IMG/VR virus record: IMGVR_UViG_2029527006_000005
DNA length: 64,000 nt
Direction: 5' to 3' (one strand)
Source of the DNA: a virus
Lineage: Duplodnaviria; Heunggongvirae; Uroviricota; Caudoviricetes
Made by a program: the position numbers and the translations under genes. Positions 1-64,000 of the stretch are shown in pieces. Numbering within the stretch: the stretch's first letter is position 1; the number at the start of each line of letters is the position of its first letter. The notes below the pieces were generated by a model that worked only from the letters and a program-made list of their open reading frames with translations, made no database searches and was not told where the DNA came from.

Positions 1-254
1 TTATCTAGATAGTATTGACTACGGCTATAAGTGATATTGTCACAGAAGTATTTCATTTGTTCTTCAAATGGTATATAGATTACAGACTGTATATCTCTGC
101 GGTCAAGTTCTTCTTGTAGTTTATCGTATTCACGTTGATACTCCAGCACGGTATGTTGAATACTACTCAACCGATTCTTTTCAAATTTAATTAAAGAACC
201 TAGTGCATTCATTTCATCAAGAATATGTTTATCAGATTTTTCATTACCAATCAT
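1..254 (-). CDS. hypothetical protein, truncated by window edge
   Basis: ATG at 254 preceded by GAGG; frame open to the window start. Confidence 0.55.
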   Translation of the reverse strand, partial: MIGNEKSDKHILDEMNALGSLIKFEKNRLSSIQHTVLEYQREYDKLQEELDRRDIQSVIYIPFEEQMKYFCDNITYSRSQYYLD

Positions 255-267
255 ATTACCTCACTTA

Positions 268-289
268 AACGGGGAGAGTACTCTCCCCT
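268..289 (-). terminator. intrinsic terminator-like hairpin
   Basis: GGGGAG-AGTACT-CTCCCC palindrome followed by GTTT on the minus strand, downstream of ORF 295..519. Confidence 0.55.
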
Positions 290-294
290 GATAA

Positions 295-519
295 TTAGCA
301 GAAGTCAGAGCTAGATAGCCATTGACCACCAGAGTTACCGTGATAGTCACGTAGATATTCATCTTCGTTGATGTACTTCTCACAATAGAATTCTTTATCA
401 ATGATGTTTAGACTAAAGTTAACATCGTTATCATCAGCAATTTTCATTAGCTCACGAATCTTGATAGTGATTTCTTCAATGCGTAGATCGATTTCTTGTT
501 GTACTGGACTCTTAGACAT
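295..519 (-). CDS. hypothetical protein
   Basis: 74 aa ORF tightly packed in the minus-strand run. Confidence 0.7.
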   Translation of the reverse strand: MSKSPVQQEIDLRIEEITIKIRELMKIADDNDVNFSLNIIDKEFYCEKYINEDEYLRDYHGNSGGQWLSSSDFC

Positions 520-521
520 TA

Positions 522-776
522 TTACTTTCCTTTTGTTACTTTTATATTTTTCAAATTAGATAAATCAATTCCGAATAGACCCAAAAGCCCACGGAGCGTG
601 TACCAAATAATATGATGCACAATACAAGGCCACAAAATGAATGTGAGCAATGAATCTTTTAAAAACTCTGGTAGATATACTTCTCTTCCATAATCGCGAT
701 AATCATATAGAAGTACTCCTAAACCTCCTAGAAATCCACCAATCCAAATTAGAATAGCAAGTGTTATTAAACTCAT
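522..776 (-). CDS. small membrane protein (WP-motif paralogue)
   Basis: two hydrophobic segments, FILWP motif, basic C-terminus. Confidence 0.7.
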   Translation of the reverse strand: MSLITLAILIWIGGFLGGLGVLLYDYRDYGREVYLPEFLKDSLLTFILWPCIVHHIIWYTLRGLLGLFGIDLSNLKNIKVTKGK

Positions 777-994
777 ACCTTATCCTTCTTTTTCTTTTTA
801 AGTACTATTTTAGGAGATGCATGTAGTAATGCACCAAGTACGATTATCATAACAATAGGCCAACAAAAACCAGCTACTATATCAATGAATACATCACCTA
901 AAGTATATTCGTCACTTAGTACATAATCGATAATCCAGAAGAGTACGGTAAAACACCCACACAAGTATAGATATATTAGTACTTCATTAGGCAT
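773..994 (-). CDS. small membrane protein (WP-motif paralogue)
   Basis: start moved to MPNEVL at 994; two hydrophobic segments, GFCWP motif, poly-Lys tail. Confidence 0.65.
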   Translation of the reverse strand: MPNEVLIYLYLCGCFTVLFWIIDYVLSDEYTLGDVFIDIVAGFCWPIVMIIVLGALLHASPKIVLKKKKKDKV

Positions 995-1170
995 GAACGT
1001 ATACCCTCCCAAATAAACAATGATAAGAAGAAAGGCCACAGGATAGCAAGTCCGATGCTTGTGACAATGTTTACAAGCCACCAGCCAGCATTTAGTGGGA
1101 AGATTTCTGAAAGTACACACCATACAAAAATTACAGCAGCTACAATCAGATAGATATAAAGAATAGTCAT
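976..1170 (-). CDS. small membrane protein (WP-motif paralogue)
   Basis: two hydrophobic segments, AILWP motif. Confidence 0.7.
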   Translation of the reverse strand: MTILYIYLIVAAVIFVWCVLSEIFPLNAGWWLVNIVTSIGLAILWPFFLSLFIWEGIRSCLMKY

Positions 1171-1171
1171 T

Positions 1172-1429
1172 TTATTTCCTTTTTAGATGTACTGGTACAT
1201 GATAAAATGGATTGAAATCTGCACCATTGGTATCATGAATACATACGTTAAATGTTTTACCAGTGAGAACATCGGCGGGAGTTTCAATAAATTTGTGTAG
1301 AACATCGACATTGGTCGGTTCGGTTATCACAGTTACATCATAACCTTCTTCACGTAGTATAGCAGCAATTCTCATGCTTGTCAATGTTTTTCCACAATGA
1401 CTTGAACCTTCAATTTTAATTTTAATCAT
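1172..1429 (-). CDS. small protein with P-loop-like N-terminus
   Basis: IEGSSHCGKT resembles the Walker A of nucleotide kinases, but the protein is only 85 aa. Confidence 0.5.
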   Translation of the reverse strand: MIKIKIEGSSHCGKTLTSMRIAAILREEGYDVTVITEPTNVDVLHKFIETPADVLTGKTFNVCIHDTNGADFNPFYHVPVHLKRK

Positions 1430-1907
1430 TTATTGTACAAAGCTCCGAGTTGACTCTATCCATTCCTTCAGTGTCAGTGAAATGTATTTGTGTACCCACT
1501 GGATCTACTGTATGAATAGTGAATGTAACATCAGCTTCATCATCCATTTTAATAGATTTACCAATGTACTTTTGGCGAATAAGTTCAAGTACTGCATTAG
1601 CTTCTTTTGCAACACTGATTACCATTTCATACATAGTTAATATTGGTTCAGGATCTACAACTTCTTTTTGTATTGATACAAATCTAGTGTACGCAATTTG
1701 TTGTATTCCAATTTTAACCTTACAATACATGTGAAGTTTAGAATTTTTATCTACAGAAAAACCATACACCGAGTCAAATACATCTTCACTCTTTAGAGAA
1801 ATTTTAAATGTATCATTAAAGGGTTTTACATCCTGCATTAGAATTTGCTCTGCATTCTTTAAGTTTTTGAACTTATCTATTAATTCATCTTTAATCACGT
1901 AATTCAA
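1422..1907 (-). CDS. hypothetical protein (local paralogue group)
   Basis: 161 aa, overlaps neighbours; N-terminal DELIDKFKNL similar to adjacent ORFs. Confidence 0.7.
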   Translation of the reverse strand: MNYVIKDELIDKFKNLKNAEQILMQDVKPFNDTFKISLKSEDVFDSVYGFSVDKNSKLHMYCKVKIGIQQIAYTRFVSIQKEVVDPEPILTMYEMVISVAKEANAVLELIRQKYIGKSIKMDDEADVTFTIHTVDPVGTQIHFTDTEGMDRVNSELCTIND

Positions 1908-2412
1908 ACTCCTGTAGGCTTTTTACTAATATACTTCTATCAGGATTACGCAATTGAATCGTAATATTATTATAGAAGTCAATATCGGCTATACAATATA
2001 CATCACCATTTGATTGGTCCACAACAATACGATTCAAATACAGATCTTGAATCTGTTTTTTACTTTTGTTTATAATATTCCGTACTGAAAGAAAATTGGA
2101 ACAAACTTCTTCAATTTTCTTATGATTAGTTTTAAATGCATATACATCATACATTTGCATTTTAGTACTAAAAGTCTTCCATCCACTAGTAGTTCTGGGT
2201 TCATCTTGAACTGTAACTTTACAGTGCATGAGAATTCCACCACTACCTTGACTCAAACTAAGAGGATATATTTCATCAATACTATCATCATATTTGTGCT
2301 TAAGACGAAGGTTTTTTAATTCAAGTAAAGCACGTCCCTCAAATTGTTTTAGTATATTAATTAGACTATTGTGACGATCAATTAAATCGCAATTCATAAT
2401 ATAAATCCTCAC
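1891..2412 (-). CDS. hypothetical protein (local paralogue group)
   Basis: 173 aa; DLIDRHNSLI N-terminus. Confidence 0.7.
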   Translation of the reverse strand: MRIYIMNCDLIDRHNSLINILKQFEGRALLELKNLRLKHKYDDSIDEIYPLSLSQGSGGILMHCKVTVQDEPRTTSGWKTFSTKMQMYDVYAFKTNHKKIEEVCSNFLSVRNIINKSKKQIQDLYLNRIVVDQSNGDVYCIADIDFYNNITIQLRNPDRSILVKSLQEFELRD

Positions 2413-2752
2413 CAGCCAGTACTTCAGCCTTTTTTATTTCTGCACAAACCAAGAGATATGGATAAAGAATCTCTTCTATTCTATTAGACTTACCACGAAG
2501 TTCATCAACTGTAAATGTTCTCAATGAAGTTTGTGGCATTATTGGATACCCACTATTATCATATAGTTTTATTTCACTACCTAATAATTTTATTCCATCT
2601 TTGGTGATCACAATATTGGATACAGCAAGTCTAGTTCTTGAATTATTTGATAGTACTGAATTTAATGCTTTAACTGTACTGACTCTTAGTTCATCTAGTG
2701 CTAGAATAAGATTTTTGTACTTCTGTAAATTATCATTCATACATAATTCCAT
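2378..2752 (-). CDS. hypothetical protein (local paralogue group)
   Basis: 124 aa; NLQKYKNLI N-terminus. Confidence 0.65.
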   Translation of the reverse strand: MELCMNDNLQKYKNLILALDELRVSTVKALNSVLSNNSRTRLAVSNIVITKDGIKLLGSEIKLYDNSGYPIMPQTSLRTFTVDELRGKSNRIEEILYPYLLVCAEIKKAEVLAGEDLYYELRFN

Positions 2753-3240
2753 TCGGTGTAGTTAAAACGATTGATAGCCACTTCTCTACCACTTTCCCGG
2801 TGTTCAGCCTTGAGGTAAAATCTGTTTTCACCAATAGTTACTAAACGTGTAATTATATATATGTCCAAATCATAAGTACACATACATTCTCTTCCACGGT
2901 ACTTATCTTCCAAATCATCTCTGGCATCGTATGCGAGTGATAGTAATTGATAATATGCAGATGCACAAGGTTCAACTAAATTTGCCAATTCTGGACAATT
3001 ATTCATTTGTATCCAAAAAGCAGCTTCGGAAATACGGAAAGAACCTTTCTGTTTTTTAAGAAGATTGAAACGTAACTGTTCAATACCCGAATCATCAAAA
3101 TCCAGTACTAGATATTCATATCCATCAAGTACTAAAATTTTATTGCAAATCTGATACCTTATTGATTTTTCTAAACTTTTAGCACTAGTAATAAGTGATT
3201 CATACTTACGTCTTAAGTCGCAGTACTCAACTGTAATCAT
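2737..3240 (-). CDS. hypothetical protein (local paralogue group)
   Basis: 167 aa; DLRRKYESLI N-terminus. Confidence 0.7.
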   Translation of the reverse strand: MITVEYCDLRRKYESLITSAKSLEKSIRYQICNKILVLDGYEYLVLDFDDSGIEQLRFNLLKKQKGSFRISEAAFWIQMNNCPELANLVEPCASAYYQLLSLAYDARDDLEDKYRGRECMCTYDLDIYIITRLVTIGENRFYLKAEHRESGREVAINRFNYTEWNYV

Positions 3241-3629
3241 TCAATAATCCTTACTAGACGTGTTGCACCGTTACAGTACTGAATACAATACGGTCCGAAT
3301 TTACCATCAATATTATCCTGCATGAATCTTTCAGTACTTTCACCCATAGATTTAGCTGCTTGAGCAAGATTGAGATAATACATTTCCGTATCATCACTGT
3401 AATAAACATCTATAACAGCATGATTTCTGGGAATATGTACTTTACGGACGAAGTGATATTGTACTGTACGATCAACAATTTCATCAGGCTTAGTAAAGAA
3501 AGTTTTATCTTCACTCATTTCTACTACTAAAATGAAAAGCTGTAATGGATTATCAAAGCGAAGCATTTTCACTAAATCTTCAAAACCACTCTCACCACGT
3601 CTACCAATAAGAAAAGTATAATCTTCCAT
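3237..3629 (-). CDS. hypothetical protein
   Basis: 130 aa ORF with AGGA RBS. Confidence 0.7.
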   Translation of the reverse strand: MEDYTFLIGRRGESGFEDLVKMLRFDNPLQLFILVVEMSEDKTFFTKPDEIVDRTVQYHFVRKVHIPRNHAVIDVYYSDDTEMYYLNLAQAAKSMGESTERFMQDNIDGKFGPYCIQYCNGATRLVRIIE

Positions 3630-3640
3630 ATAGAATCCTT

Positions 3641-3664
3641 AAAAGGGCAGTGCAAGCACCGCCC
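3641..3664 (-). terminator. intrinsic terminator
   Basis: GGGCGGTGC-TT-GCACTGCCC-TTTT on the minus strand after pseT. Confidence 0.6.
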
Positions 3665-3669
3665 GTATT

Positions 3670-4602
3670 TTAGAAATTACCTTCAGCCACGGCAAAGACC
3701 TTTAGGCCGATTAGGTTCCTCCACATTTTCACGACTTGTTCGCGATCATCGAATACTTTGACGACTTTCATCTTACCATGAACGTGCTTCATGTACAACT
3801 CATATTTCACGATATCATCGCTACGGTTGTCATGTTCTTCACGCATGAAGATGTGATCAACTGGAACATTGTGTTTTTCAAACCATGCAAGGGTATCAGC
3901 CATACAGGTTTCATGACGACCACTCATGACGATTACTTTACGACCGAGGAAGTTCTTTTCTGCTAGTACAGAAAGGATTACTTCAGGATCGGGTTTATCG
4001 TCAAGTACTTTAGTCTCGTCATAAGGTCCACGGTTCCACATATGTGCAACAGTACCATCCACATCCACGATGATATATTCTTGAGCATCTTCTGCGAAGA
4101 ACTCAGAATTAACTACGTGTACAAAAGAACTGTACAAGTACTTCACTGCCATATCATCGATTACTGATTCAGGAACTGCTTTAACGCGGTTGATGTTACG
4201 AGCCTTACAGTGTTTTACGAATTCTTTTACTGCAAAGAACTCGTGAACAAAGTCTTTACCCTTTTTGAACTCAGTGAAGAAGTTCTGTTCTTTGTAAGTG
4301 TATCCATGTGCCTTAGCAAATGCTTTCCACTTCTCACGAACTGTTGGGTTAAGGTTCGTGTCAGAAACGATGATGTTCCACTTGTTAGCTGCTGCATGTT
4401 CCGCTGCACTGCACTGTACAGATTGTACGTACTGTTCGTTGTCTTTACGGAACTTGTAGTTCTGGTGTGTACCAGCCATTGTCTCACGCACGTCATCAAG
4501 GTTGACGTTTACCGTTTTGGACTTTGCAGTACGTACCTGCTCGTTAGCCCAAGTACTTTTACCGCACCCCGGAAGTCCCACCGTTAGTGTTAGTGTTGGC
4601 AT
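3670..4602 (-). CDS. pseT: polynucleotide 5'-kinase / 3'-phosphatase (T4 PseT-like)
   Basis: N-terminal Walker A GLPGCGKST; C-terminal HAD domain with DVDGT, SGR and FDDR; ends VAEGNF as in T4-type Pnk. Confidence 0.93.
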   Translation of the reverse strand: MPTLTLTVGLPGCGKSTWANEQVRTAKSKTVNVNLDDVRETMAGTHQNYKFRKDNEQYVQSVQCSAAEHAAANKWNIIVSDTNLNPTVREKWKAFAKAHGYTYKEQNFFTEFKKGKDFVHEFFAVKEFVKHCKARNINRVKAVPESVIDDMAVKYLYSSFVHVVNSEFFAEDAQEYIIVDVDGTVAHMWNRGPYDETKVLDDKPDPEVILSVLAEKNFLGRKVIVMSGRHETCMADTLAWFEKHNVPVDHIFMREEHDNRSDDIVKYELYMKHVHGKMKVVKVFDDREQVVKMWRNLIGLKVFAVAEGNF

Positions 4603-4813
4603 CTTTGTTTACTCCAAATTTGTCTGTAATGATATTCAAAACGTGTTCACCTACGCGAATACTCGCAGTATCTTTTGCACCACTGTATTTTAATGGTATC
4701 CACTCTAATTTAGCTTTGTGTAGAAAAGCTATACAACGACGATAATCACCTAATGAGAAAAATTTAACCACTGACATATCCTGTACTACACTGTGGGTAA
4801 CTTCTACTTTCAT
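4559..4813 (-). CDS. hypothetical protein
   Basis: 84 aa ORF with GGAG RBS. Confidence 0.6.
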   Translation of the reverse strand: MKVEVTHSVVQDMSVVKFFSLGDYRRCIAFLHKAKLEWIPLKYSGAKDTASIRVGEHVLNIITDKFGVNKDANTNTNGGTSGVR

Positions 4814-4823
4814 TTCTCTTCTC

Positions 4824-5174
4824 CTAAGCGTCTATAAAGTCATAATTATTGAACATCAAATCAATGTTGAAATATGCATCTGAATCAAAGTACAAACAAT
4901 TATCAATACAGTATATCTGATTTCCGATACCTTTGCAATGATTATATATGTCCTCTCGATCTTTTTCTGAGACTCCTGCACCTTTATCAATGCAGTACCA
5001 TTTCTCATTATAATGCATAATCGTTAGAACGTCAACCCTACGATTAGTCACGGTAATCTGTTCTCCCCATATTTTGAATGAACCTATTTTGATCATAGAT
5101 TCGTTCGGTCTTCGGTTTTTTGGGCTTGTGCTCCTTCTTGTACATAGTACTACTAATACCAAACGTGTTGGCAA
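4824..5174 (-). CDS. hypothetical protein (probable start at internal MIKIG)
   Basis: ORF track; the N-terminal extension overlaps the upstream gene. Confidence 0.55.
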   Translation of the reverse strand: MPTRLVLVVLCTRRSTSPKNRRPNESMIKIGSFKIWGEQITVTNRRVDVLTIMHYNEKWYCIDKGAGVSEKDREDIYNHCKGIGNQIYCIDNCLYFDSDAYFNIDLMFNNYDFIDA

Positions 5175-5307
5175 TCCGCTTCTTACTCTTCTTCACTCCC
5201 GCAAAGGAGCGTTTTGACTGCAAAGCGTCAATCTCTTGAAGTATTTTTCTATGTTCTTCTGGAGTACGGGTTTCTCCCTTTTTTAGTTTATATTTTGTGT
5301 TAGCCAT
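5044..5307 (-). CDS. small basic protein
   Basis: 87 aa, Lys/Arg rich, GGAG RBS. Confidence 0.65.
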   Translation of the reverse strand: MANTKYKLKKGETRTPEEHRKILQEIDALQSKRSFAGVKKSKKRIANTFGISSTMYKKEHKPKKPKTERIYDQNRFIQNMGRTDYRD

Positions 5308-5335
5308 AACTTCTCCATGTCTTGGCTTATATGTA

Positions 5336-6487
5336 TTAGAAGTCTTCTAACACATCTTTCATGTACTTCAACATCACTTCTTTGTAATCCACAGGTTTAT
5401 TGTTGTATAACGCAAAAGCAATACCTTGATGATTCAAATCCTTTGGCAAGTTACGCTGTACTACTAAAGCGAACTCTTTACGATCAAGATCTTTATAAGC
5501 ACTTACAAAATCCTGCACAGTCTGTTGTAAGTTATTATAGGTTGAAAATACTAATTTTTCCATACGCTCAATCTTATCTAAGCAGTACTGATCAGTACTA
5601 AACATCTGACGTAAATCATCCGATCCACCTGTTAGTACTGCTTCGTATAGACGGGAATCAACGTTAATACTATCCTTAGTGAAGTGCAATGCACAGTACC
5701 ACTCGGTCTTAATTTTAAACATTGTACCATCTTTTAATTGAACGACAAAACCTTCGATACCCGTCATTTTATAAACAGACTCAATCGAATCTTTTAAAGT
5801 ATGACACATTGGGAAGGTTTTGTCAATATCCCCGCTGTTAGAAAATACTGATTTATTATATAGTACCGGGAAACGTTTTTTCAACGCTTCACCTGTTAGT
5901 AGCTCACCAGTGCTGCGGTGACGCAAGTTTAGTACAGTCAACTCATCTTTCTGATATGGTAACACAATCCTGAACTCAGGGGAAGTGTACTCCAAATTCA
6001 CCGTGTACATCGCTAGGTCAGCTTCAATGATTGCCTGATGGAAATCATCATCTGCGTGAATTAACGCCGTAGAATTGATTGCATGGTCGCTGTGCATAGA
6101 TGTATGAGACTTGGTACGGATCACTCCGTCATTATCAGTGAAAGTACTGATAATCGAACCATCACGCTTATCCATAGCAATTGTAATTTCCGAAGATAGA
6201 ACATCCTTCGGGAACATCACTAATGGATTCTCATAAGCGTTAAAGAATTTCTGTGGTGTACGACACGCGACACGGATTAAAGAACCGTCCGGGCGAATCT
6301 CGAACATTGTACCACGACACTCTAATGCCGATGGCTCTAAGAAATCCGAATAGGAAGCAAGACGGTACGCAAAGGTACGATACAAGCCACCAGCAATTGA
6401 TTGTGTGTCACGGAAAAAGAATGCTTCGTTCTTTTCACATAACTGTAGTAACTCATTGTACAACGTAATGATTGAAGGGGTTGCCAT
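5336..6487 (-). CDS. rnlA: RNA ligase 1 (T4 RnlA family)
   Basis: ECRG and KFFN motifs, adenylation motif KRDGS, EGFV, FKIK; close to pseT; start set at MATPS. Confidence 0.92.
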   Translation of the reverse strand: MATPSIITLYNELLQLCEKNEAFFFRDTQSIAGGLYRTFAYRLASYSDFLEPSALECRGTMFEIRPDGSLIRVACRTPQKFFNAYENPLVMFPKDVLSSEITIAMDKRDGSIISTFTDNDGVIRTKSHTSMHSDHAINSTALIHADDDFHQAIIEADLAMYTVNLEYTSPEFRIVLPYQKDELTVLNLRHRSTGELLTGEALKKRFPVLYNKSVFSNSGDIDKTFPMCHTLKDSIESVYKMTGIEGFVVQLKDGTMFKIKTEWYCALHFTKDSINVDSRLYEAVLTGGSDDLRQMFSTDQYCLDKIERMEKLVFSTYNNLQQTVQDFVSAYKDLDRKEFALVVQRNLPKDLNHQGIAFALYNNKPVDYKEVMLKYMKDVLEDF

Positions 6488-7088
6488 GATTTTCTGCCTC
6501 AAATAGTAGTTCTAATGCATTTTCATACATAGAATCGATAATGTTTAATGATAGTTCTGCTGGAATGAACTCAGACAAATCCAAATCCAAGTGCTGGTAA
6601 TCCAAATCAAAACCAATACTGTGCTTTCTAGCAATCTTTTCCAAATAGTCATACACTTCACACGCAGGTTTGATGTACTGGTGATCTGGAAGATTGTACA
6701 ACATAGTCATTTGGAAATGCTCATCTTCTGCAATATTACGATCCACTTCTAGTGATTCGTCCATGTACACAATTTTAGTACTGTGCATAGGTAGATACAT
6801 CCACGAAGGATATAAAATAGTTCTACCACCATAGTTTTGTAGATTACCGAATAATGAAGGTTGGTTGGTTTCTCTGTCTTCTAACATCAATCCAATTCCA
6901 TTAGTACCTTTCTTTGAAGTCAAGTACATTTCATAGCGACTTAATGGATGAGATAATCCTACAAAACATTCAGAGAACATGTTTTTGTACTTTTTAGATT
7001 CTTTTAGTTCAAATACATCAACAGCAGTATGGAACCGCCATTGATTGACTAATTCAAAAAAGAACAACATAGATTGTATATTTTTCAT
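6453..7088 (-). CDS. FQ-motif paralogue family protein
   Basis: EDEHFQMTMLY. Confidence 0.7.
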   Translation of the reverse strand: MKNIQSMLFFFELVNQWRFHTAVDVFELKESKKYKNMFSECFVGLSHPLSRYEMYLTSKKGTNGIGLMLEDRETNQPSLFGNLQNYGGRTILYPSWMYLPMHSTKIVYMDESLEVDRNIAEDEHFQMTMLYNLPDHQYIKPACEVYDYLEKIARKHSIGFDLDYQHLDLDLSEFIPAELSLNIIDSMYENALELLFEAENHGNPFNHYVVQ

Positions 7089-7606
7089 ATTAATCCTTCT
7101 GGAATATCTAGGTTATCAAAATTCTCTTCCATGCCAATATCAATCATTGTGTTGGACATGTAGCATATTTTAGCTAAAGATGGACAGTACTTAGCAATAG
7201 CATCGTACATCTCTTGAGTACCGAAATTATAGATAGTATTCATTTGGAATACATACTCTTCATCAAAAGAATCCATCTTACGAGTTTCAATTGGCATCTC
7301 ATCAAAGTACGACCCAACATCTACTAAATGTGTAATGTCCACCATTTCACCTAATTTACCATACACAGTAAGTTTAGGATAGTATGTTTCATCTAATCGT
7401 ATTCTACTGTTCGGTGCTTTTGGTGAACTGCGAGAACAATCATAGATAGTAATAATCTCTCTACAAGTTTCTAAATTGTGAATACCAACTTTATAATGCG
7501 TAACATACGCTCGGTATGGACCAATTTGGTTATCAAAGAAATTGGATTCATTTTTATTACGATCATAAAGTTGTATTAAGTTAAACACTACTTCAACTAT
7601 ATTCAT
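7085..7606 (-). CDS. FQ-motif paralogue family protein
   Basis: EEYVFQMNTIY. Confidence 0.7.
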   Translation of the reverse strand: MNIVEVVFNLIQLYDRNKNESNFFDNQIGPYRAYVTHYKVGIHNLETCREIITIYDCSRSSPKAPNSRIRLDETYYPKLTVYGKLGEMVDITHLVDVGSYFDEMPIETRKMDSFDEEYVFQMNTIYNFGTQEMYDAIAKYCPSLAKICYMSNTMIDIGMEENFDNLDIPEGLI

Positions 7607-8217
7607 TTGGTCATCTCCAAAAACTCATAGGACAAGTTAGGCATGATACGTTGAGGTAGATTCCCAGAAACGAAACATTTGTGTTGCATCATCATTGGGC
7701 GAATCTTTTGTGCAAATTCGTAAAACGCCATAAGCTCATCAAGCTCTGGAAGAGAGCTAATGGCGGTACTCAACATGAAGTGGTTACCTTCTTCACATAC
7801 TTCATGGAAGGAATATTCCTCACATTCTTCACCAGCCCTCATCTTTATACGAACAAGTATATCATCTAAAAACTTTGGATTCAAGTGATATTTGATCATA
7901 CCACCCAAGCCAATGTAAATTTCCGATCTTTCTTTTGAGTCGTTTTTGAAATTCGATATCTCAAATCCATAATCTAACGTTTTATCACTGGCTGACCAAC
8001 CAGAGTACTCATACTCTTCAGTACGGTTACCACGTACATCATATGTACTCTCTGCGACATGAGAATGAGTCATTCCAAAGTCTTCATACTGTCTACGTTG
8101 CTTTACCTTTTTGTCTCTTAGATTGTACAAAGAATCAAAAGCATTAAGTACACTACGCTGTAAAGTTTTATAATCCCGCATATAAATTACTCCAGTACTC
8201 AAAGTCACCACCCTCAT
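7603..8217 (-). CDS. FQ-motif paralogue family protein (variant)
   Basis: EEGNHFMLSTAI. Confidence 0.65.
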   Translation of the reverse strand: MRVVTLSTGVIYMRDYKTLQRSVLNAFDSLYNLRDKKVKQRRQYEDFGMTHSHVAESTYDVRGNRTEEYEYSGWSASDKTLDYGFEISNFKNDSKERSEIYIGLGGMIKYHLNPKFLDDILVRIKMRAGEECEEYSFHEVCEEGNHFMLSTAISSLPELDELMAFYEFAQKIRPMMMQHKCFVSGNLPQRIMPNLSYEFLEMTK

Positions 8218-8701: not shown

Positions 8702-8707
8702 AGAACC

Positions 8708-9013
8708 TCACTTGTTCCAATCACTTCCCATAGATTCAATCTCTTCAGCGATATCATAGATCTCACTTAGAGTTGCTTTTACCCAAAACACAGTTGAACT
8801 GGAAATACTTTCATATCTGTGATTTCCAGAATACAAGAATACAGTATCTTGAGTACATTCTACAGTACTGTCACCAATGGTAACATGGTCTAATAAAGTA
8901 TATTCTTTACCTTCTGGTTTTTTGTACACAGAAGTGTTGTGATCAATATTAATAGCTTCTAGTTGAAACCACACATCATTTGGAACTGCTCTGATATTAT
9001 AACTCATATTCAC
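8708..9013 (-). CDS. hypothetical protein
   Basis: 101 aa ORF. Confidence 0.6.
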   Translation of the reverse strand: MNMSYNIRAVPNDVWFQLEAINIDHNTSVYKKPEGKEYTLLDHVTIGDSTVECTQDTVFLYSGNHRYESISSSTVFWVKATLSEIYDIAEEIESMGSDWNK

Positions 9014-53090: not shown

Positions 53091-53092
53091 CA

Positions 53093-56212: not shown

Positions 56213-57331
56213 ATGATACCTTTTGCGAGGATAGTTACTTACGGGAATGTAGTACAAAGAGTTCAGATAGTTAAGGTTATCTGTTCATATTCCAACGTAT
56301 ACGTTTTGTACGGTGATGGTGAGTTATATGGATGTGGGGCTAATAACACGTTACAATTAAACGTAGCTGGTACACAAACACGTAAGGATTGGGTATTAGT
56401 TGCTAGTGGTGTACAAGATGCTTGGTGTGGTGCATATAGTGTAGTATATTATAATGGTAGTACCTACCGTATGCATGGTAGTATTTTGCCACTTGGAAGT
56501 ACTTCAGGATCTACGACAATAGCGTTGGGTGGTATAGATGTAACTAGTACGTTCCCTGCATATAATGTTGTACGGGATATAACGGTGGGTCAAGAGACTA
56601 TGCACTACCTTCACTCTAATGGATATGTCATATATGGTCGTGGAAACAATGCTACTTTATATACATTAGGAGGTGGTATTACTAGTGCACAGAATACATT
56701 TACTAGTGTAATGACGCTTGGTGGTGCTACTATAGTTGATATGTATGAAACACAAGATGATACTGTATTTTTAACTAGTACAGGAGATGTACGGGCATGT
56801 GGTAAGAGTACTTATGGTGCGATTGGATTACCTGCTGGGGGTTATGCGACGATGTTAGTAAGGACGAGTTCTGCTTCATTGATTGGTGGTAACTCTATGA
56901 GTACTATAGTTTATAAAGGTGGTGGTATTATAGATTATGCGGGTTGGCAGTACAATGGTCAATTGGGTAATGGATTAGCTACTAACGTACAGGTAACTTC
57001 TTTTACGAGGAATAGTACTGGTGTTGACACTGATATTCATAAAATAGGGAAGTCACAAACTGGATCATATATTAATATGTTTGCTACTACTGGTGGTGAT
57101 ATATATACAACGGGTATATTTGGTCGAAATGGGACGAATTCGGCATTAAGTTCATGGACGAAGACATTAACGGTTCCGAATTACGATCCTGAAAAGTCTG
57201 CGTTATATATGTGTTCTAACTTCACGTTAGTATACGATGGTGTTAGTAAGATTTATGTTACTGGTAGTCCTGTGTATTTGCCGGGAAGTATATCATCGGT
57301 GCAGTGGGATGAGCTTCAAATGCCGAGATAA
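56213..57331 (+). CDS. RCC1/BLIP-II-like beta-propeller protein, MIPFAR family
   Basis: N-terminal MIPFARIVTYGN; GELYGCGAN, GDVRACG and NGQLGNG repeats. Confidence 0.75.
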   Translation: MIPFARIVTYGNVVQRVQIVKVICSYSNVYVLYGDGELYGCGANNTLQLNVAGTQTRKDWVLVASGVQDAWCGAYSVVYYNGSTYRMHGSILPLGSTSGSTTIALGGIDVTSTFPAYNVVRDITVGQETMHYLHSNGYVIYGRGNNATLYTLGGGITSAQNTFTSVMTLGGATIVDMYETQDDTVFLTSTGDVRACGKSTYGAIGLPAGGYATMLVRTSSASLIGGNSMSTIVYKGGGIIDYAGWQYNGQLGNGLATNVQVTSFTRNSTGVDTDIHKIGKSQTGSYINMFATTGGDIYTTGIFGRNGTNSALSSWTKTLTVPNYDPEKSALYMCSNFTLVYDGVSKIYVTGSPVYLPGSISSVQWDELQMPR

Positions 57332-57336
57332 TAATA

Positions 57337-57366
57337 GGTCAGTACAGGAGTGTACTGGCCTTTTTT
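57337..57366 (+). terminator. intrinsic terminator
   Basis: GGTCAGTACA-GGAG-TGTACTGGCC-TTTTTT. Confidence 0.8.
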
Positions 57367-57369
57367 GGT

Positions 57370-57384
57370 TAAATATGATATAAT
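57370..57384 (+). promoter_or_regulatory. composite TAAATA + extended -10 promoter
   Basis: TAAATATGATATAAT. Confidence 0.65.
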
Positions 57385-57404
57385 GATTAATTATGGGGGA
57401 TTAT

Positions 57405-58583
57405 ATGATACCATTTGCGAGAATAATGAAATATGGTAATAAATTACAGACGAGGAAGGTAATCAAAATATCTGCGGGTTTAACTGGATGGGTTATGCTC
57501 ATGGATAATGGTGATCTGTACTGTTATGGTAATGGGCCGATGGGTGATGGAAAGAATGAGTTCAGATCTGAATGGACATTCATTAATTCGAATGTAAGAA
57601 ACTTTTGGGTAGATCCTATAAATGTTTTTATAGTAGTACAGAAGGATGATAATACGGTTGAGTACTGTGGTGATCAGAGATATATTACTGGTCTTACGAA
57701 TCAGCCTATTATATTAAATTTTACTGTTGACAGTATGTTCGCGTCCAAGACTACTAGAGTGAAAGATATTAAGTTCAACACAACCCAATATAGTGTTGGA
57801 TTAATTACAAGTACTGGAGTATTTTATCTACGTGGTTCACAGCGTGCATTAAATGGTGGTACTTCTCCACTTTCATCGTGGACACAGTTTAACACTGGTA
57901 TAATTGCATTAGCGAGTAGTAGTACGAACTGGTGGACTATTAATTCGGTGGGTAACGTAATGGGTGGTGGGCAAAATATTTCACAAATATTCAATAACTC
58001 AGCCGAGAACACATTTGTTTCTTACCCAACGAGTATTGGTACTACTGCTAACGTAGATGATACAAATTTATTAAGTGGTCAGTATTGGGTATCTTTTAAT
58101 AGCTCCGCGAACAAGAATAGTTATTACGGAAGAGGTTTCAATTCCAATGGACAGTTTGGTAATGGTACTACAACTACATTAAGGGCAACAACTATTATTT
58201 CATCATCTTGGCCTAATTTGGGTTCTATGAAGAATACTGGTGCATCGAATTATGACACTATTACTTGCATTATGTATTATACTACGGGTGGTTTGATATA
58301 CTACAGTGGTTACAGTGCATATCGTGTTCCGGGTGTTGCTGCGGGGAAAAATACGATGACTGCATTTACTGTTCCTTTTGATGTTAACTTAATTGAGTAC
58401 TTATATCTTGATAGGCAGAGTACATATGCTTTCTTATCTGATGGTAGAATTTTCATGATTGGTCGTTATTTTAATAGTGCTGGTTTACAAGAGAACACGG
58501 ATTACACTGATGTTACTTCTATGTTTGGTGCATTTGAAAAAGCATATACAAGGGAAACGATGATTAATGGGAGGAATGTATGA
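57405..58583 (+). CDS. RCC1-like beta-propeller protein, MIPFAR family
   Basis: MIPFARIMKYGN; GDLYCYG, GFNSNGQFGNG. Confidence 0.75.
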   Translation: MIPFARIMKYGNKLQTRKVIKISAGLTGWVMLMDNGDLYCYGNGPMGDGKNEFRSEWTFINSNVRNFWVDPINVFIVVQKDDNTVEYCGDQRYITGLTNQPIILNFTVDSMFASKTTRVKDIKFNTTQYSVGLITSTGVFYLRGSQRALNGGTSPLSSWTQFNTGIIALASSSTNWWTINSVGNVMGGGQNISQIFNNSAENTFVSYPTSIGTTANVDDTNLLSGQYWVSFNSSANKNSYYGRGFNSNGQFGNGTTTTLRATTIISSSWPNLGSMKNTGASNYDTITCIMYYTTGGLIYYSGYSAYRVPGVAAGKNTMTAFTVPFDVNLIEYLYLDRQSTYAFLSDGRIFMIGRYFNSAGLQENTDYTDVTSMFGAFEKAYTRETMINGRNV

Positions 58584-59503
58584 TACCATTTGCTAGGATA
58601 CTTGAATATGGTAATAAAGCGAAAGTACTATTCAAGGGAATAATACAGCAATTAACACCGGGAGCGGGATATCAGCCTGTGGGTCGTAATAACACGTGTA
58701 GTGCCTTATGTACTACAAATAACAGGATATATTTCTTTGGTGGATTGAATGCTGGTGGGACATTTTTAAATGATTTGTTTTATTATGATATGTTATTGAA
58801 TAGGTACACACAATTATCTAGTACTGGATTGGGTGCATACAGGAGTGCGGCGATGAGTTATTGTGCTGCTGATGGATATGTATATTGTTTTGGTGGTGCG
58901 AATGCGGCTAACCAAGGGCAGACGCAATTCTTTAGGATAAATGTTAGTACTGGAGCGATGGCATTAGTTACTGGAGATACTAATAGGCCAGCGGGGAAAT
59001 TTTCTCAAACTGTGATATGTAAGAATAATGAGTTATTCTTTTTTGGTGGTGGAAGTACTGCGGATCGACAAGTAATTACTAAGTACAATGTTACTACTAA
59101 GGTATGGACGGTAGTACGTACAGGAGTGACTTCTCCTGATTTAATAGGTGGTCCGAATTGTGCTATAGTATATAATGATAAGATGTATGTAGCGGCTAAT
59201 GATGGTTTATATGAGTTTAATACGACGAGTTATATATTAACGAAGATGCCTAATCAGCCAGCGTCTTTTACGAGCGGTGGTTATAGTTTTGTTATACGAG
59301 GTGATTGGTACTTTATGAATAATTACGGTACTAATGCGTTATCGAAGTACAATTCTGCTGATGGAACATGGTCGGTTGTTGGTACAATTAATCACGGTAC
59401 TGAGCTTTTTAGTGGTTGGAATGGATATACGGATGAGAATGGTTTTGTATTGTTTGGCGGTGCAGCCAATGAGAGAAGTACAAGAATAAGAAAGATAAGT
59501 TAA
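58580..59503 (+). CDS. Kelch-like beta-propeller protein, MIPFAR family
   Basis: MIPFARILEYGN; repeated IYFFGG/VYCFGG/LFFFGG...Y(D/N)...W Kelch blades. Confidence 0.8.
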   Translation: MIPFARILEYGNKAKVLFKGIIQQLTPGAGYQPVGRNNTCSALCTTNNRIYFFGGLNAGGTFLNDLFYYDMLLNRYTQLSSTGLGAYRSAAMSYCAADGYVYCFGGANAANQGQTQFFRINVSTGAMALVTGDTNRPAGKFSQTVICKNNELFFFGGGSTADRQVITKYNVTTKVWTVVRTGVTSPDLIGGPNCAIVYNDKMYVAANDGLYEFNTTSYILTKMPNQPASFTSGGYSFVIRGDWYFMNNYGTNALSKYNSADGTWSVVGTINHGTELFSGWNGYTDENGFVLFGGAANERSTRIRKIS

Positions 59504-59513
59504 GGAGAGGATT

Positions 59514-60662
59514 ATGATACCTTTTGCGAGGATAGTTAAGTACGGAAATATTATAGAGCCGGTGCCTGTGATAAAAAAGATTTTGGCGTCTGCTAACTGG
59601 TGTATGATTTTATATGAAAATGGGGATTTATACGTTCGAGGTCAAAACTCTGGAAGTACATTTGGTGATGGTTCTGCACAAAATACGATATACACTGGTG
59701 ATTGGAGATTAAGCACAACCGGGATAAAAGATATATGGTCTGGTGCAGGTACAACTTTCTGTACTACAATGGATAATAGGGTATTGAGTTCAGGTGCGAT
59801 ACGTGGATTAACTGGAGGAACGGCGAGTAGTACTAATATTTTCACGGACAGGAGTAGTACATTTATATCAGCGGGATTACAACCAAGTGATATAGTAGAT
59901 ATGTCAGTTGGGGCGTATGATATATTTGTATTAACGGTTACTGGAGAGGTGTACAGTGGTGGTACTAATTTTTCTGGACAACATGGAGTTGGTAATACGA
60001 CTGCCAGAGCATTTGGATTGAACACAAGTTTTGTTAATGTGAAGAAAATAAGTTCAAGTACAGGGCAAGCTGGCACATGTTGGCATTTGGACACATCGGG
60101 AAATTTTTATGGTGCGGGTGATGGTTCAGTGGGTCAAATATTAGGTACAGCCAGTACTAGTGCACAGAAGTTGATTAGTACTGGTGTTATTGATTATACA
60201 GCTAGTACAAATTGTTTTTTCATTACCAAGAATGATGGTTTATATTGTGCTGGTTCACAATTCAATGGACAATTAGGTGATGGTGTAATGAGTTCTAATA
60301 TAGGAAACGTTGGTAGAACATCCTTATATAAGTTAACACAATTTACAAGTCCCCCATCTTATATCAGGAATGATTTATATATGACGGTGCTACGTTATAA
60401 TGATACTTGGTATGTAACGGGTAATATTACTAAAAGCGGAGCGGGTTCCAATTCTATGAGTTCAGTATTTGTAGTGAACAATACTGATATACCGGATACT
60501 AATACACCCAAATGGGTATGTGGTGGTAATAATTCTTATGTAGTATCTGGTGCGGGAGTATTGTATGGTACGGGTACATATTCAGCTAGTACTGATTTAT
60601 TGCCGGGATATACGACAGCCCAATATACATTTGTACCCCTGTCATTACGTGGTATAGAATAA
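59514..60662 (+). CDS. RCC1-like beta-propeller protein, MIPFAR family
   Basis: MIPFARIVKYGN; GDLYVRGQN, GEVYSGGTNFSGQHGVG, NGQLGDG. Confidence 0.78.
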   Translation: MIPFARIVKYGNIIEPVPVIKKILASANWCMILYENGDLYVRGQNSGSTFGDGSAQNTIYTGDWRLSTTGIKDIWSGAGTTFCTTMDNRVLSSGAIRGLTGGTASSTNIFTDRSSTFISAGLQPSDIVDMSVGAYDIFVLTVTGEVYSGGTNFSGQHGVGNTTARAFGLNTSFVNVKKISSSTGQAGTCWHLDTSGNFYGAGDGSVGQILGTASTSAQKLISTGVIDYTASTNCFFITKNDGLYCAGSQFNGQLGDGVMSSNIGNVGRTSLYKLTQFTSPPSYIRNDLYMTVLRYNDTWYVTGNITKSGAGSNSMSSVFVVNNTDIPDTNTPKWVCGGNNSYVVSGAGVLYGTGTYSASTDLLPGYTTAQYTFVPLSLRGIE

Positions 60663-60672
60663 GGAGAGAGAA

Positions 60673-61821
60673 ATGATACCATTTGTTAGAATATTGGGTT
60701 ATGGAAATACTGCACCCAAGCCGAAGGAGTTTCCAAAAGCGATCCAAAACATATTATCAGTGACGATGTATTTGGACACGACAACATCTAAATTGTATGC
60801 ATTAGGAACTAATGCTTCGGGTCAGCTTGGTACTGGTGATAGAAATGATACTACTGGTGGTACATTCATGGAAGTACTATCAGGAGTTGAGAGTTATTAT
60901 TTGGGTAATAGTGGGACCGTATGTATTATGTTGAATGGTACGATTATGTTTAGTGGGAGTAGTAATTACTATTCGAATCCTAATGGTAATTTGTATGCAT
61001 GGACGGACATTACGGCATCGTTTACTGCTATAGGTTTAGTTGCTTCGGACATTAAAGACGCGGTATTAAGTACTGGTATGTTCTTTTTATTGAATGATGG
61101 TTCGTATGCGTGTGTTGGTTCAGTTACTTATTCTCAATGGGGTATAGGTTCACCAGTAGTTGTGCGTAATTTAACTCGATATACTTCTAGTTTTGGGGCG
61201 ATAGATGAGGTATGTGGGACATATGAAAGTACTATAATACGTATAGGTGGTAAAGTTTACCGTTCTGGATATTCTGTTAGTTCTACTGGTACTACTGTAC
61301 AAAACCCGCAATGGACTGCTATACCGGGTTTAGATAATGTAGTGACGATGGGAACTGTTTATCAGGCAGAATATTATTTTCTATCCAGTGGTGCGATATA
61401 TACATGTGGTTTTAATCAGTTATCATCATTAAAGTTATCTCAAACGACTTCTGGATATTATGCTAATCCCGTGCAATCATTATCTACATTCAATCCGTTA
61501 ACGGAATTGCGATGTATATCTAGTGTTGCAAGTAGTGGTACACAGTCACCTATTATGTACAATGATGGTAAGTACTATATATGTGGTCAGAACTCTAATG
61601 GTAAATTGGGTGTTGGATTAACTAATAATCCGGTATCACCGTTGCATGAGATGGATATGTCTAACTTAGATGCTGCTGTTAAATACGTGGCATCGGATTC
61701 TGTTAACAGAACATGGGTAATGGATACTAATAAGAAATTGTATGCATGTGGTACGGTGAATATTACTGGATTTGGGAGTTACAATAAGCCGACGATAGTA
61801 ACTAATATGCCGTGGTATTAA
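60673..61821 (+). CDS. RCC1-like beta-propeller protein, MIPFAR family
   Basis: MIPFVRILGYGN; LYALGTNASGQLGTG, CGQNSNGKLGVG. Confidence 0.78.
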   Translation: MIPFVRILGYGNTAPKPKEFPKAIQNILSVTMYLDTTTSKLYALGTNASGQLGTGDRNDTTGGTFMEVLSGVESYYLGNSGTVCIMLNGTIMFSGSSNYYSNPNGNLYAWTDITASFTAIGLVASDIKDAVLSTGMFFLLNDGSYACVGSVTYSQWGIGSPVVVRNLTRYTSSFGAIDEVCGTYESTIIRIGGKVYRSGYSVSSTGTTVQNPQWTAIPGLDNVVTMGTVYQAEYYFLSSGAIYTCGFNQLSSLKLSQTTSGYYANPVQSLSTFNPLTELRCISSVASSGTQSPIMYNDGKYYICGQNSNGKLGVGLTNNPVSPLHEMDMSNLDAAVKYVASDSVNRTWVMDTNKKLYACGTVNITGFGSYNKPTIVTNMPWY

Positions 61822-61826
61822 ATATA

Positions 61827-61857
61827 GGCCAGTACAGTTGTAGTACTGGCCTTTTTT
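61827..61857 (+). terminator. intrinsic terminator
   Basis: GGCCAGTAC...GTACTGGCC-TTTTTT. Confidence 0.8.
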
Positions 61858-61860
61858 CGT

Positions 61861-61875
61861 TAAATATGGTATAAT
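61861..61875 (+). promoter_or_regulatory. composite TAAATA + extended -10 promoter
   Basis: TAAATATGGTATAAT. Confidence 0.65.
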
Positions 61876-61895
61876 GATAAATTATGGAGGGAACT

Positions 61896-63059
61896 ATGAT
61901 TCCATTTGCAAGGATATTGAGTTATGGTAATAAAGTTGCGGGGTTATCTAAAATAAAAGATTTACAGGCTAATGACACGCATTTAATGTTATTAACGACT
62001 GATGGTGATATGTGGGCGTATGGTTATAGTAATAGTGGTTCTATGGGAATTGGTACTACTGTACCTCAAGCGAATCAAGGTTGGTACAAGAGTAATATAA
62101 GTAATGTTAGATTATTCAGTTCTAACAGATTGACGAGTACAATAGCTGTTACTACCGACAATAAGGTATATGTATGTGGAAGTATTGTGGCTGCGAAATT
62201 CAGTACTCCAAACTTGCCAACATCGAATCTGTCATGGTTGGATGTAACGGATCATATACCACAAGAGATTTTAGATGCAGGGATTAAGCAGATATATAAC
62301 CAGACGAACTATGTTGCTATATTAACTAATAACAATGTAGTGTACAGTGTTGCATTTACGTTAGGTGATTCGAGTGTTGTGGTTGAACGTACATGGCGAC
62401 GTAATACTGCTACATCAATAGTACCTGATAAGATTGTAGGTTTTGAGCAGACAGCTAGTGGGTTTGTTTTTATAGTACAGGATAGTTCTGGGTATCTTTA
62501 TGGTTTAGGTTATAATGGTAACCGAATAATAAGTTCTGCGGCTACAAGTACATTTACTACATATACACAATTAGGGACATTGGCGTACCTTGATTATCAG
62601 ATTGCTAATGGTGGTACATTCAGTACTGGTATATTGAGTGATGGTCGTGCGGTACATTGTGGTTCATTAACTGGAGTTGCGAGTTTTAACAACACATTAA
62701 CTGCTGCGAGTAACGTTCCATTAAAAGTTGCTGCATTTGCAGGATGTGGTATAGGGGTAATACAATCTAACAGAATGCTTGGTGCTTATACGTCGAACCA
62801 GTTGCCGATTGCTAGTGCAGGTAATACTAATAGTGGAAGTGTTGTTATTATACGTAACATGCCGGGTAGTATGTCCAGTGCAGATATAAAGTTCATGTGT
62901 GGTAATGGTAGTACTAGTACAGGGAATAAGAACATGTATGTATTGTATCAGGATGTTAATGGTAAAAGTACAATATTTGGATTAGGATTTTGTGTAGGAC
63001 AAGGTGCTTCAGTGAACCAGCCATTTGTTAAGATAGATTTACCGGGAGGGTTAGAATGA
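61896..63059 (+). CDS. RCC1-like beta-propeller protein, MIPFAR family
   Basis: MIPFARILSYGN; GDMWAYGYSNSGSMGIG, GYLYGLGYN. Confidence 0.75.
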   Translation: MIPFARILSYGNKVAGLSKIKDLQANDTHLMLLTTDGDMWAYGYSNSGSMGIGTTVPQANQGWYKSNISNVRLFSSNRLTSTIAVTTDNKVYVCGSIVAAKFSTPNLPTSNLSWLDVTDHIPQEILDAGIKQIYNQTNYVAILTNNNVVYSVAFTLGDSSVVVERTWRRNTATSIVPDKIVGFEQTASGFVFIVQDSSGYLYGLGYNGNRIISSAATSTFTTYTQLGTLAYLDYQIANGGTFSTGILSDGRAVHCGSLTGVASFNNTLTAASNVPLKVAAFAGCGIGVIQSNRMLGAYTSNQLPIASAGNTNSGSVVIIRNMPGSMSSADIKFMCGNGSTSTGNKNMYVLYQDVNGKSTIFGLGFCVGQGASVNQPFVKIDLPGGLE

Positions 63060-64000
63060 TACCATTTGCTAGAGTGTTAGATTATGGGAATAGAGCACCA
63101 GTACCGGGGATTAATTACAGAATATATAGTACTATAAATTCTTTTTTATTTCACGATGTTGGTAAATCAAAATTATATGGGATGGCTGATGATGGTGGAA
63201 TGATCGGGTTTCCTAATACCACGGCCTATGGTACATTTACATTATGCTTATCCGATGTACAGACAGTATTGACTAAGAATCAAGCTGGTAGTTCATTTAG
63301 TGCTGTGCGTAAAAATGACGGCACTATATGGTTTTGTGGTACATCCGGGTCAGTACTAGGTGGTAGTGCTAGATACAGTCAATGGGAAAATCATACTGCA
63401 TTGTTTACAGCATCTGGATTAGATCCATTAAATGTAAAGGAGATTAATTCTTATAATAATTTGAAATTAAATGTAGTAATGAATAATGGTGATTTATGGT
63501 GTTGTGGAAAGAATAACGTCACGGCAAAATCATCGTTTGGAACTGGAACTAACAATGATAGTTTCGGTGCATTTGTTAAAGTACCGCTTAGTGGTGTTGT
63601 CACTGCACATGGAAACTGTTATATCAGTGGTAGTACGTTGTATCAGACCGGTACGAATTCTTTATATCAGTACGGGAATGGTACAACAAATGGTGGTCCG
63701 GGATTAACCCAAATAGCAACTGATGTAGTAGATGTGAGAACTGCTTGGCAGGGAACTTATTATCTTTCAAGTACAGGTGATGCTTATGGTGCAGGTACTC
63801 CTTTTAACGTATCATCTTATGGTAATGAGTTTGCTCAAGGTGCATCATCTTCGGCAATTCCTTTTTTTAAAGTTCTGAGTTCTAATGTAGATAGTATTGA
63901 ATCCTGTATGGGTAATATGAGTTTCCATGTACTTAATGATAGAATGTATAGTACTGGATTAAATCGCAGTTCAGTATTCGGTACTGGTGGTGGTAGTAAT
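63056..64000 (+). CDS. RCC1-like beta-propeller protein, MIPFAR family, truncated by window edge
   Basis: ATG at 63056 overlaps the upstream TGA; reads MIPFARVLDYGN; absent from the ORF track, consistent with no stop before the edge. Confidence 0.75.
   Translation, partial: MIPFARVLDYGNRAPVPGINYRIYSTINSFLFHDVGKSKLYGMADDGGMIGFPNTTAYGTFTLCLSDVQTVLTKNQAGSSFSAVRKNDGTIWFCGTSGSVLGGSARYSQWENHTALFTASGLDPLNVKEINSYNNLKLNVVMNNGDLWCCGKNNVTAKSSFGTGTNNDSFGAFVKVPLSGVVTAHGNCYISGSTLYQTGTNSLYQYGNGTTNGGPGLTQIATDVVDVRTAWQGTYYLSSTGDAYGAGTPFNVSSYGNEFAQGASSSAIPFFKVLSSNVDSIESCMGNMSFHVLNDRMYSTGLNRSSVFGTGGGSN

Follow-up and report, generated by a model that had tools for sequence, protein, structure and literature searches.

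Iteration of the palindrome AGTACT in a Rak2-like jumbo phage, its relatives and a lineage of small proviruses, and a putative two-fold-symmetric factor that may read it

Results

Layout of the window

The whole 64-kb stretch of IMG/VR virus record IMGVR_UViG_2029527006_000005 (hereafter the window) was characterized with respect to the hexamer AGTACT, a palindrome that recurs throughout it far more often than expected by chance. Megablast placed the window in a Rak2-like jumbo phage of Enterobacterales, the nearest relatives being Klebsiella phage fENko-Kae01 (Kae01) and Salmonella phages Munch, 7t3 and SE_PL, with ~77–80% identity in alignable parts. The G+C content is 37.7%, and nearly all genes lie on one strand. 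By blastn synteny, positions 1–35.4 kb correspond to Kae01 ~51.6–19.8 kb, and 35.4–55.8 kb, an early region made up of small genes under host-type promoters, is the counterpart of the 19.7-kb direct terminal repeat of Kae01. Beyond 55.8 kb the window runs into the DNA that precedes the right repeat copy in Kae01, indicating that the assembly collapsed the two repeat copies. On this synteny, the window covers the left arm of a Rak2-like jumbo phage, ~20 kb of early region resembling a terminal repeat, and the repeat junction. The features on which the argument turns are as follows.

1–64000, unstranded: AGTACT, 257 dispersed copies (counts, Markov models and codon controls).
35601–55780, minus strand: terminal-repeat-like early region, ~20 kb (blastn synteny to Kae01 positions 83–19793; repeat annotation OR228459).
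45309–45348, minus strand: early promoter cassette, AAA-AGTAC-TTGCAT-N16-TATAAT, whose −35 element begins with the last T of AGTACT (45334–45339).
47975–48046, minus strand: two-site promoter, with one AGTACT abutting the −35 element and a second at −19 to −14, just upstream of TATAAT.
55100–55911, unstranded: non-coding outer repeat end, the densest patch (14.8 AGTACT per kb, 12 copies in 55276–55911); this is the genome terminus in Kae01.

Size of the excess

The 257 copies compare with 22.0 ± 4.75 (maximum 37) in 100 dinucleotide-preserving shuffles, an excess of ~12-fold. AGTACT is the commonest hexamer of the window, the next unrelated word occurring 91 times. The original prediction, made from the letters alone, had described a palindrome iterated across coding and non-coding DNA against a chance rate of about one per 3 kb, and both statements hold; its local counts, 12 in the patch at the repeat end and 5 in 43521–44227, were exact. 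Markov models of order 1, 2, 3 and 4 predicted 21.7, 50.7, 110.7 and 224.3 copies respectively. The order-4 model therefore leaves an excess of just 1.15-fold (z = 5.1), which still ranks second among the 4096 hexamers. Correction for 4- and 5-mer usage had been named beforehand as a possible refutation, and it nearly absorbs the excess. We do not take it as one, because AGTACT itself supplies 257 of the 369 copies of AGTAC and 257 of the 414 copies of GTACT, and the model consequently over-corrects.

Codon usage does not account for the excess. There were 200 coding sites, distributed 85/50/65 over the three codon phases. Shuffling synonymous codons within each gene gave 59.5 ± 6.7 (maximum 77), and shuffling codon order gave 26.4, so that the excess persisted in the codon-shuffled controls that had been proposed with the original prediction. 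Density was 1.8 times higher in intergenic than in coding DNA (6.3 as compared with 3.55 per kb). The Ser-Thr dipeptide was found 150 times as compared with 80 expected (1.9-fold), indicating that pressure for AGTACT has changed protein sequences. Along genes the word was evenly distributed (Kolmogorov–Smirnov p = 0.26), and a bias to gene ends or recombination junctions was rejected.

Across the genome, AGTACT thus greatly exceeds what composition and low-order Markov models predict, in all coding frames and in non-coding DNA, and more so than codon usage explains. In these respects it resembles HIP1 (GCGATCGC) of cyanobacteria, another short palindrome that is present many times over chance in all coding frames and spacers and is maintained by selection. 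The comparison with HIP1 in the original prediction is therefore apt as a description.

Conservation and form of the word

In a 30-kb alignment of the window with Kae01 (76.9% nucleotide identity), 80 of the 133 aligned window sites (60%) were also AGTACT in Kae01, as compared with 26.6% identity for all hexamers. Turnover was nevertheless evident, with 53 sites private to the window and 57 private to Kae01. By this alignment, AGTACT sites are held by purifying selection, with partial turnover between phage genera.

The GTAC core was enriched 3.1-fold. Variants differing at one outer position were still enriched, by 1.7–3.8-fold (TGTACT/AGTACA 3.8-fold, GGTACT 2.2-fold, CGTACT 1.9-fold), while those differing at an inner position occurred at ~1-fold. 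GGTACC and CGTACG were wholly absent from the window. By these counts, the recognised form comprises GTAC as core and A/T at the outer positions. The flanks were weakly biased and symmetric, TT-n-(A/C)-AGTACT-(T/G)-n-AA: position −1 was A or C, G being always the rarest, and positions −3 and −4 were T, with mirrored preferences at +6 (T/G) and +8 (A). As genes lie nearly all on one strand, the mirror symmetry held in sense-oriented data, which points to double-stranded DNA read by a two-fold-symmetric agent.

Distribution in jumbo relatives, hosts and small proviruses

AGTACT and the reversed word TCATGA, which served for comparison, were counted in relatives and in Escherichia coli.

fENko-Kae01: AGTACT 941, reversed word 150.
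Hallingskeid: AGTACT 1313, reversed word 200.
RaK2: AGTACT 937, reversed word 142.
fHe-Yen9-04: AGTACT 1008, reversed word 137.
pEa_SNUABM_12: AGTACT 1078, reversed word 154.
EJP2: AGTACT 1312, reversed word 159.
E. coli K-12 (4.64 Mb): AGTACT 400, reversed word 1147.

The six jumbo relatives, which belong to several genera, contained 937–1313 copies as compared with 137–200 of the reversed word, and the density in the window was ~47 times that in E. coli K-12. The AGTACT excess is real and strong, is selected at the level of DNA itself and is common to the whole phage clade.

A scan of IMG/VR for clustered AGTACT also recovered small proviruses, of which two, G001 and G003, were analysed in full. 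G001 (32.5 kb, 97% complete) had 136 copies as compared with 10 expected, and G003 (28.3 kb) had 126 as compared with 8.7, a 13–14-fold excess that is stronger than that in the window. Both lacked GCGC and 25–28 palindromic hexamers. Their gene set includes a large serine recombinase, a lambda-type terminase and portal, and a capsid–protease fusion; relatives with the same signature were found in Leclercia, Phytobacter and Yersinia chromosomes. No near match was found in complete E. coli genomes, and a scan of bacterial genomes for triple AGTACT clusters gave unrelated matches alone. The flanks in the proviruses matched the jumbo-phage pattern: −1 was C in 57–60% of sites, G was rarest, and −3 and −4 were T.

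When all open reading frames were compared with four jumbo genomes and the window by BLASTP and phmmer, the proviruses and jumbo phages had two proteins in common. One was an endolysin (PF00959). The other was a 221-residue AP2-like protein, missing in RaK2 and Hallingskeid and broken in Kae01. On this gene content, the small proviruses are a lineage unrelated to the jumbo phages, and no phage-encoded reader common to both was visible in this comparison. The AP2-like gene, which is of the type associated with homing endonucleases and itself contains no AGTACT (G001 (L318) 2389–3054, EJP2 99308–99916, Kae01 113054–113724), is probably mobile.

Placement in the early region and at promoters

AGTACT occurred at 3.2 per kb in 1–28 kb and at 6.1 per kb in the repeat-like early region, which is twice the density of the rest of the window. 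Kae01 was similar, with 55–68 copies per 10 kb in both repeat copies as compared with ~20 elsewhere, and 11 in its first 610 bp. The gaps between sites in Kae01 were near-exponential (coefficient of variation 1.07), and regularly spaced priming or packaging marks were therefore rejected.

Between 36.3 and 54.3 kb, AGTACT was fused to the TTG of the −35 element in 16 promoter-like sites, which bears out the earlier observation that the word abuts −35 boxes. The early promoter consensus is AAAAGTAC-TTGCAT-N16-TATAAT. Eight promoters had AGTACT at −19 to −14, and four had both sites, 20–21 bp apart; in the promoter at 47975–48046 the two copies start at 48012 and 48033, 21 bp start to start. A peak of AGTACT spacing at 20–22 bp was present in all jumbo relatives.

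About 20 near-identical cassettes of this kind (AAAAGTAC-TTGCAT-TACT...-TATAAT) precede small genes in 36.3–54.3 kb, many with a G-rich hairpin and ribosome-binding site downstream, and they recall the promoter–early stem-loop cassettes of T4-type phages. The word had also been thought to sit inside terminator hairpins. This was not upheld, as no predicted terminator stem of the window contains AGTACT; it merely adjoins three terminators, which are followed directly by ...TTTGTAC-AGTACT.

Purged palindromes and enriched Chi

In Kae01, 24 of the 64 palindromic hexamers were absent (AAGCTT 0 as compared with 121 expected), GCGC was absent (357 expected) and CCWGG occurred once (230 expected). 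The window lacked the same words, including every GCGC. Unpurged palindromes were near expectation, AGTACT being the lone exception in the opposite direction.

Chi (GCTGGTGG) was found 25 times in the window as compared with 0.57 expected, a 44-fold excess. Eighteen of the 25 copies lay in 35869–55546, within the terminal-repeat-like region, and 19 were on the minus strand. Kae01 had 46 copies (2.4 expected), 14 of them in each repeat copy. The dominant orientation is the one in which RecBCD recognises Chi when it enters from the right end of the genome. Like AGTACT, Chi in phages is a short word far over chance and concentrated near DNA ends. It differs in being asymmetric, with one working orientation and a known reader, RecBCD, whereas AGTACT is its own reverse complement with symmetric flanks, is not an asymmetric oriented word, and is 10 times denser here. 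As host-read Chi is enriched in the same DNA, a host-encoded reader for a second word is plausible.

A block without ACT

Two regions devoid of AGTACT showed strand-specific loss of a triplet.

28105–32314, minus strand: sole AGTACT-free stretch, with six tandem genes of unassigned function (28347–31868), identified from word counts.
34432–35450, minus strand: two genes adjoining the inner boundary of the repeat, with no AGTACT and a mirror-image bias (AGT 3 on the sense strand as compared with 22 expected).

In the 4.2-kb stretch at 28105–32314, GTAC was present 57 times as compared with 13 expected (4.3-fold), and AGTAC occurred 36 times on the sense strand, the next base being always A, G or C. 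The sense strand of the six genes (28105–31991) contained no ACT in any frame, as compared with 65–82 expected; TCT (6 as compared with 51) and NCTC (2 as compared with 25) were also depleted, while CCT and GCT were normal. Correspondingly, AGT was missing from the plus strand over 3892 bp, a gap 83 times as long as the mean. AGTACT is thus missing because ACT is absent from the sense strand, and pressure for the word still acts in a block where just five of its six letters are allowed.

The block lacked every purged palindrome, and its syntenic orthologues in Kae01 were 37–42% identical, indicating resident, fast-evolving DNA. Together with the 4.3-fold GTAC enrichment, this led us to reject recent import as the cause of the AGTACT-free stretch. 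A run free of ACT/AGT was the top trinucleotide outlier in Kae01 (~23.6–26.0 kb), EJP2 (14.8–17.0 kb) and Hallingskeid (357.9–362.2 kb); in the same comparison none was seen in RaK2 or the small proviruses. In the two genes at 34432–35450, GAG, TAG and CAG were also low on the sense strand, and Kae01 19.7–21.1 kb showed the same bias more weakly.

The ACT-free operon had no Pfam or PHROG match. One of its proteins had six homologues among 1.8 billion representatives; its model was confident (predicted local distance difference test score 84) and had no fold match in the PDB. Messenger RNAs without ACA resist MazF. By analogy, the strand-specific, frame-independent loss of a triplet suggests protection from an enzyme whose substrate is single-stranded RNA or DNA. 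The operon would then point to a second activity, one that reads a three-letter word on one strand. The absence of ACT is a matter separate from the AGTACT question.

Discussion

A putative two-fold-symmetric reader

The reading that we favour, tentatively, is that AGTACT is a dispersed site for a DNA-binding factor of two-fold symmetry, which would also act at early promoters. The word on double-stranded DNA would be read most simply by a dimeric DNA-binding protein. Bound at both promoter positions, two helical turns apart, such a factor would control early transcription, and the hundreds of intragenic sites would load it along the whole phage chromosome; E. coli K-12 DNA, 47 times poorer in the word, could not load it in this way. 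The proposal in the original prediction of a genome-wide self-mark survives in part: the codon controls and conservation uphold a selected DNA signal, while the methylase proposed as its partner falls away (see below). A nucleoid, packaging or repair protein, each named at that stage, may be the reader.

Several observations weigh against this proposal. No AGTACT reader was identified in this analysis, and no evident benefit attaches to each of the hundreds of intragenic sites. Just ~24 of the 257 copies occupy promoter positions, and intergenic copies in the small provirus are not positioned at −35 elements. The near-exponential gaps in Kae01 (coefficient of variation 1.07) show no ordered spacing. 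A host repressor acting on early promoters would harm the phage, so that a host version needs an activating or protective role. Finally, a small, fast-evolving phage protein common to both lineages may lie beyond the reach of sequence searches.

Precedents exist for one site that is present many times in a phage genome, both inside genes and at early promoters: the stoperators of Cluster A mycobacteriophages, and the early-promoter repressors SPO1 TF1 and phi29 p6, which coat the genome. Stoperators are asymmetric, oriented with transcription and number 20–35 per genome, whereas AGTACT is palindromic, numbers ~900–1300 per genome and has no protein identified for it.

Should a defined factor read AGTACT, phages now under development as therapy for Klebsiella, E. 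coli and Salmonella would prove to carry a new DNA signal spanning their genomes. Such a factor would also offer a handle on early-gene control and on the distinction between self and host DNA in a T4-derived giant phage with unmodified DNA. No paper linking AGTACT to jumbo phages was found in the literature searched, and the word goes unmentioned in the fENko-Kae01 paper. New in this work are the finding that the proviruses lack the Dam methylase, which excludes it as the partner, the rejection of SlmA on flank counts, the flank pattern common to both lineages without a candidate gene, the cause of the AGTACT-free block, and the enrichment of Chi in the repeat.

A possible host-encoded reader

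The reader may be encoded by the host. Since both lineages share the word and its flank pattern but no candidate gene, this version carries real weight, and we judge host and phage origin about equally likely. In its specific form, a conserved Enterobacterales factor would read AGTACT, two unrelated lineages would have filled their genomes with the word independently, recruiting or diverting the factor, and the host would keep the word rare. We consider that full scenario doubtful. If it were true, AGTACT would be a second Chi-like case of phages writing a word that the host reads, and it would reveal a host function that jumbo phages depend on or disarm.

A possible enzyme substrate

Alternatively, AGTACT could be the preferred substrate of a symmetric phage or host enzyme, for example a type II topoisomerase that makes 4-base staggered cuts (A^GTAC^T), a nuclease, an enzyme of recombination, or a primase for which the word is a template. 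A palindromic core with tolerant outer bases would suit a two-fold-symmetric enzyme, and the word is densest at the genome terminus and in the early cassettes, which are prone to recombination. In addition, AGTAC is still enriched 8-fold on one strand of the ACT-free block, as if the strands were read singly. The spacing of sites is random, however, rather than regular, and no replication or topoisomerase gene common to the proviruses and jumbo phages was detected. The cleavage preference reported for gyrase, T^GRYC, does not fit GTAC. A search for RE_ScaI-like proteins gave no match in the genomes, but the control genomes were silent too. On balance, an enzyme substrate is unlikely.

A possible by-product of mutation, repair or palindrome purging

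The word might have no reader, having arisen from a mutation or repair bias or been left as a safe word by the purge of other palindromes. Both AGTACT-rich lineages have lost ~25 palindromic hexamers and every GCGC, and the order-4 Markov excess is small, as this explanation would have it. Yet unpurged palindromes lie near expectation with no general rise, and the losses are too small to supply ~800 extra sites (GGTACC and CGTACG together have an expectation of 74 in Kae01). Moreover, conservation of the sites is more than double that of the average hexamer, and amino-acid sequence has been bent toward the word. We know of no repair system that gives a 10-fold rise of a hexamer. A by-product is thus distinctly unlikely.

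A proposed methylation mark

The orphan adenine methylase of the window had been proposed as the partner of AGTACT.

13759–14286, minus strand: predicted Dam-family adenine methyltransferase gene (PF05869 profile match).

The match to PF05869 scored 106 bits (cut-off 28.1) over profile positions 7–150 of 169, which assigns the family. The family is conserved in the jumbo relatives Kae01, RaK2 and EJP2, and HIP1 has reportedly been linked to methyltransferases. A mark of the HIP1 type, in which a phage methyltransferase modifies AGTACT and the word stays frequent through that modification or through a repair bias coupled to it, might be expected to draw on such a gene. Against this, the family is absent from both proviruses, which are richer in AGTACT than the window. 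No enzyme of PF01555, to which N4-cytosine methyltransferases such as M.ScaI belong, was found in the five genomes tested, although control genomes gave matches. GATC was not avoided in the window (189 as compared with 219 expected), as anticipated if a Dam enzyme acts on and protects GATC. Nanopore sequencing of native as compared with amplified DNA of Hallingskeid and Kaldavass identified GATC and CCWGG, with TGCAT in addition in Kaldavass, as the modified motifs (PMC11780129). AGTACT is therefore absent from the motifs reported for Hallingskeid, a genome with 1313 sites, for which GATC and CCWGG alone are listed. The predicted Dam-family methylase is thus not supported as the partner of AGTACT, the association with a methyltransferase seen for HIP1 does not extend to it, and we regard a methylation mark as very improbable. 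AGTACT differs from HIP1 further in that it is a 6-mer carried by phages of Enterobacterales rather than by a cellular chromosome, has no cognate methyltransferase found for it, is built into early promoters at fixed positions and is depleted in the hosts.

A possible signal in RNA

A further possibility is that an RNase or an RNA-binding protein reads AGUACU in mRNA and so governs transcript lifetime. Early transcripts are the richest in sites, and the operon whose mRNAs have no ACU hints at an agent that reads short words in single-stranded RNA or DNA. Such a signal is nonetheless highly unlikely, since mirror symmetry of the flanks persists when sites are oriented by the sense strand, the one-off words AGTACV and BGTACT have similar sense-strand frequencies outside the ACT-free block, and site density is highest in terminal DNA that is not transcribed and within promoters.

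SlmA and LexA

The core of the site bound by the host nucleoid-occlusion protein SlmA (GTGAGTACTCAC in E. coli) is AGTACT, and loading of this protein could block cell division during infection. Both words are palindromic, the reader is dimeric, and a host protein would explain the convergence of two lineages and the depletion of the word in the host. The SlmA-binding site is a 12-bp palindrome, GTRAGYRCTYAC, in which G1 and T2 are required; there is a strong need for G1, T2, A4 and G5, and for a purine at position 3 (PMC3020112). The required flanks were under-represented at phage AGTACT. The GTR flank was observed 6 times as compared with 15 expected in the window, 40 as compared with 77 in EJP2, 20 as compared with 51 in RaK2, 33 as compared with 78 in Hallingskeid and 3 as compared with 8 in the provirus. 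In every genome tested the flank was at 0.4–0.7 times background, with 0–1 full SlmA sites per genome. If anything, AGTACT sites avoid becoming SlmA sites, and SlmA loading is extremely unlikely.

LexA was also considered, as CAGTACTG contains both LexA half-site words and two such sites 18 bp apart would form the LexA operator CTGT-N8-ACAG. Operators or a half-site sponge were rejected: TACTG-N10-CAGTA was found just 1–6 times per genome with no general 18-bp peak, CTG was not required, and −1 was as often A as C in the jumbo clade.

Other observations

In provirus G001 (L318), the interval separating a divergent pair of small genes (9142–9240) contains a perfect LexA box, TACTGTATATGCATACAGTA. 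The lysis–lysogeny switch of G001 may therefore be under direct SOS control. In the window, five tandem paralogous genes of 372–396 residues occupy 56213–63059 on the plus strand, and they form the sole sizeable paralogue family that BLASTP detected there.

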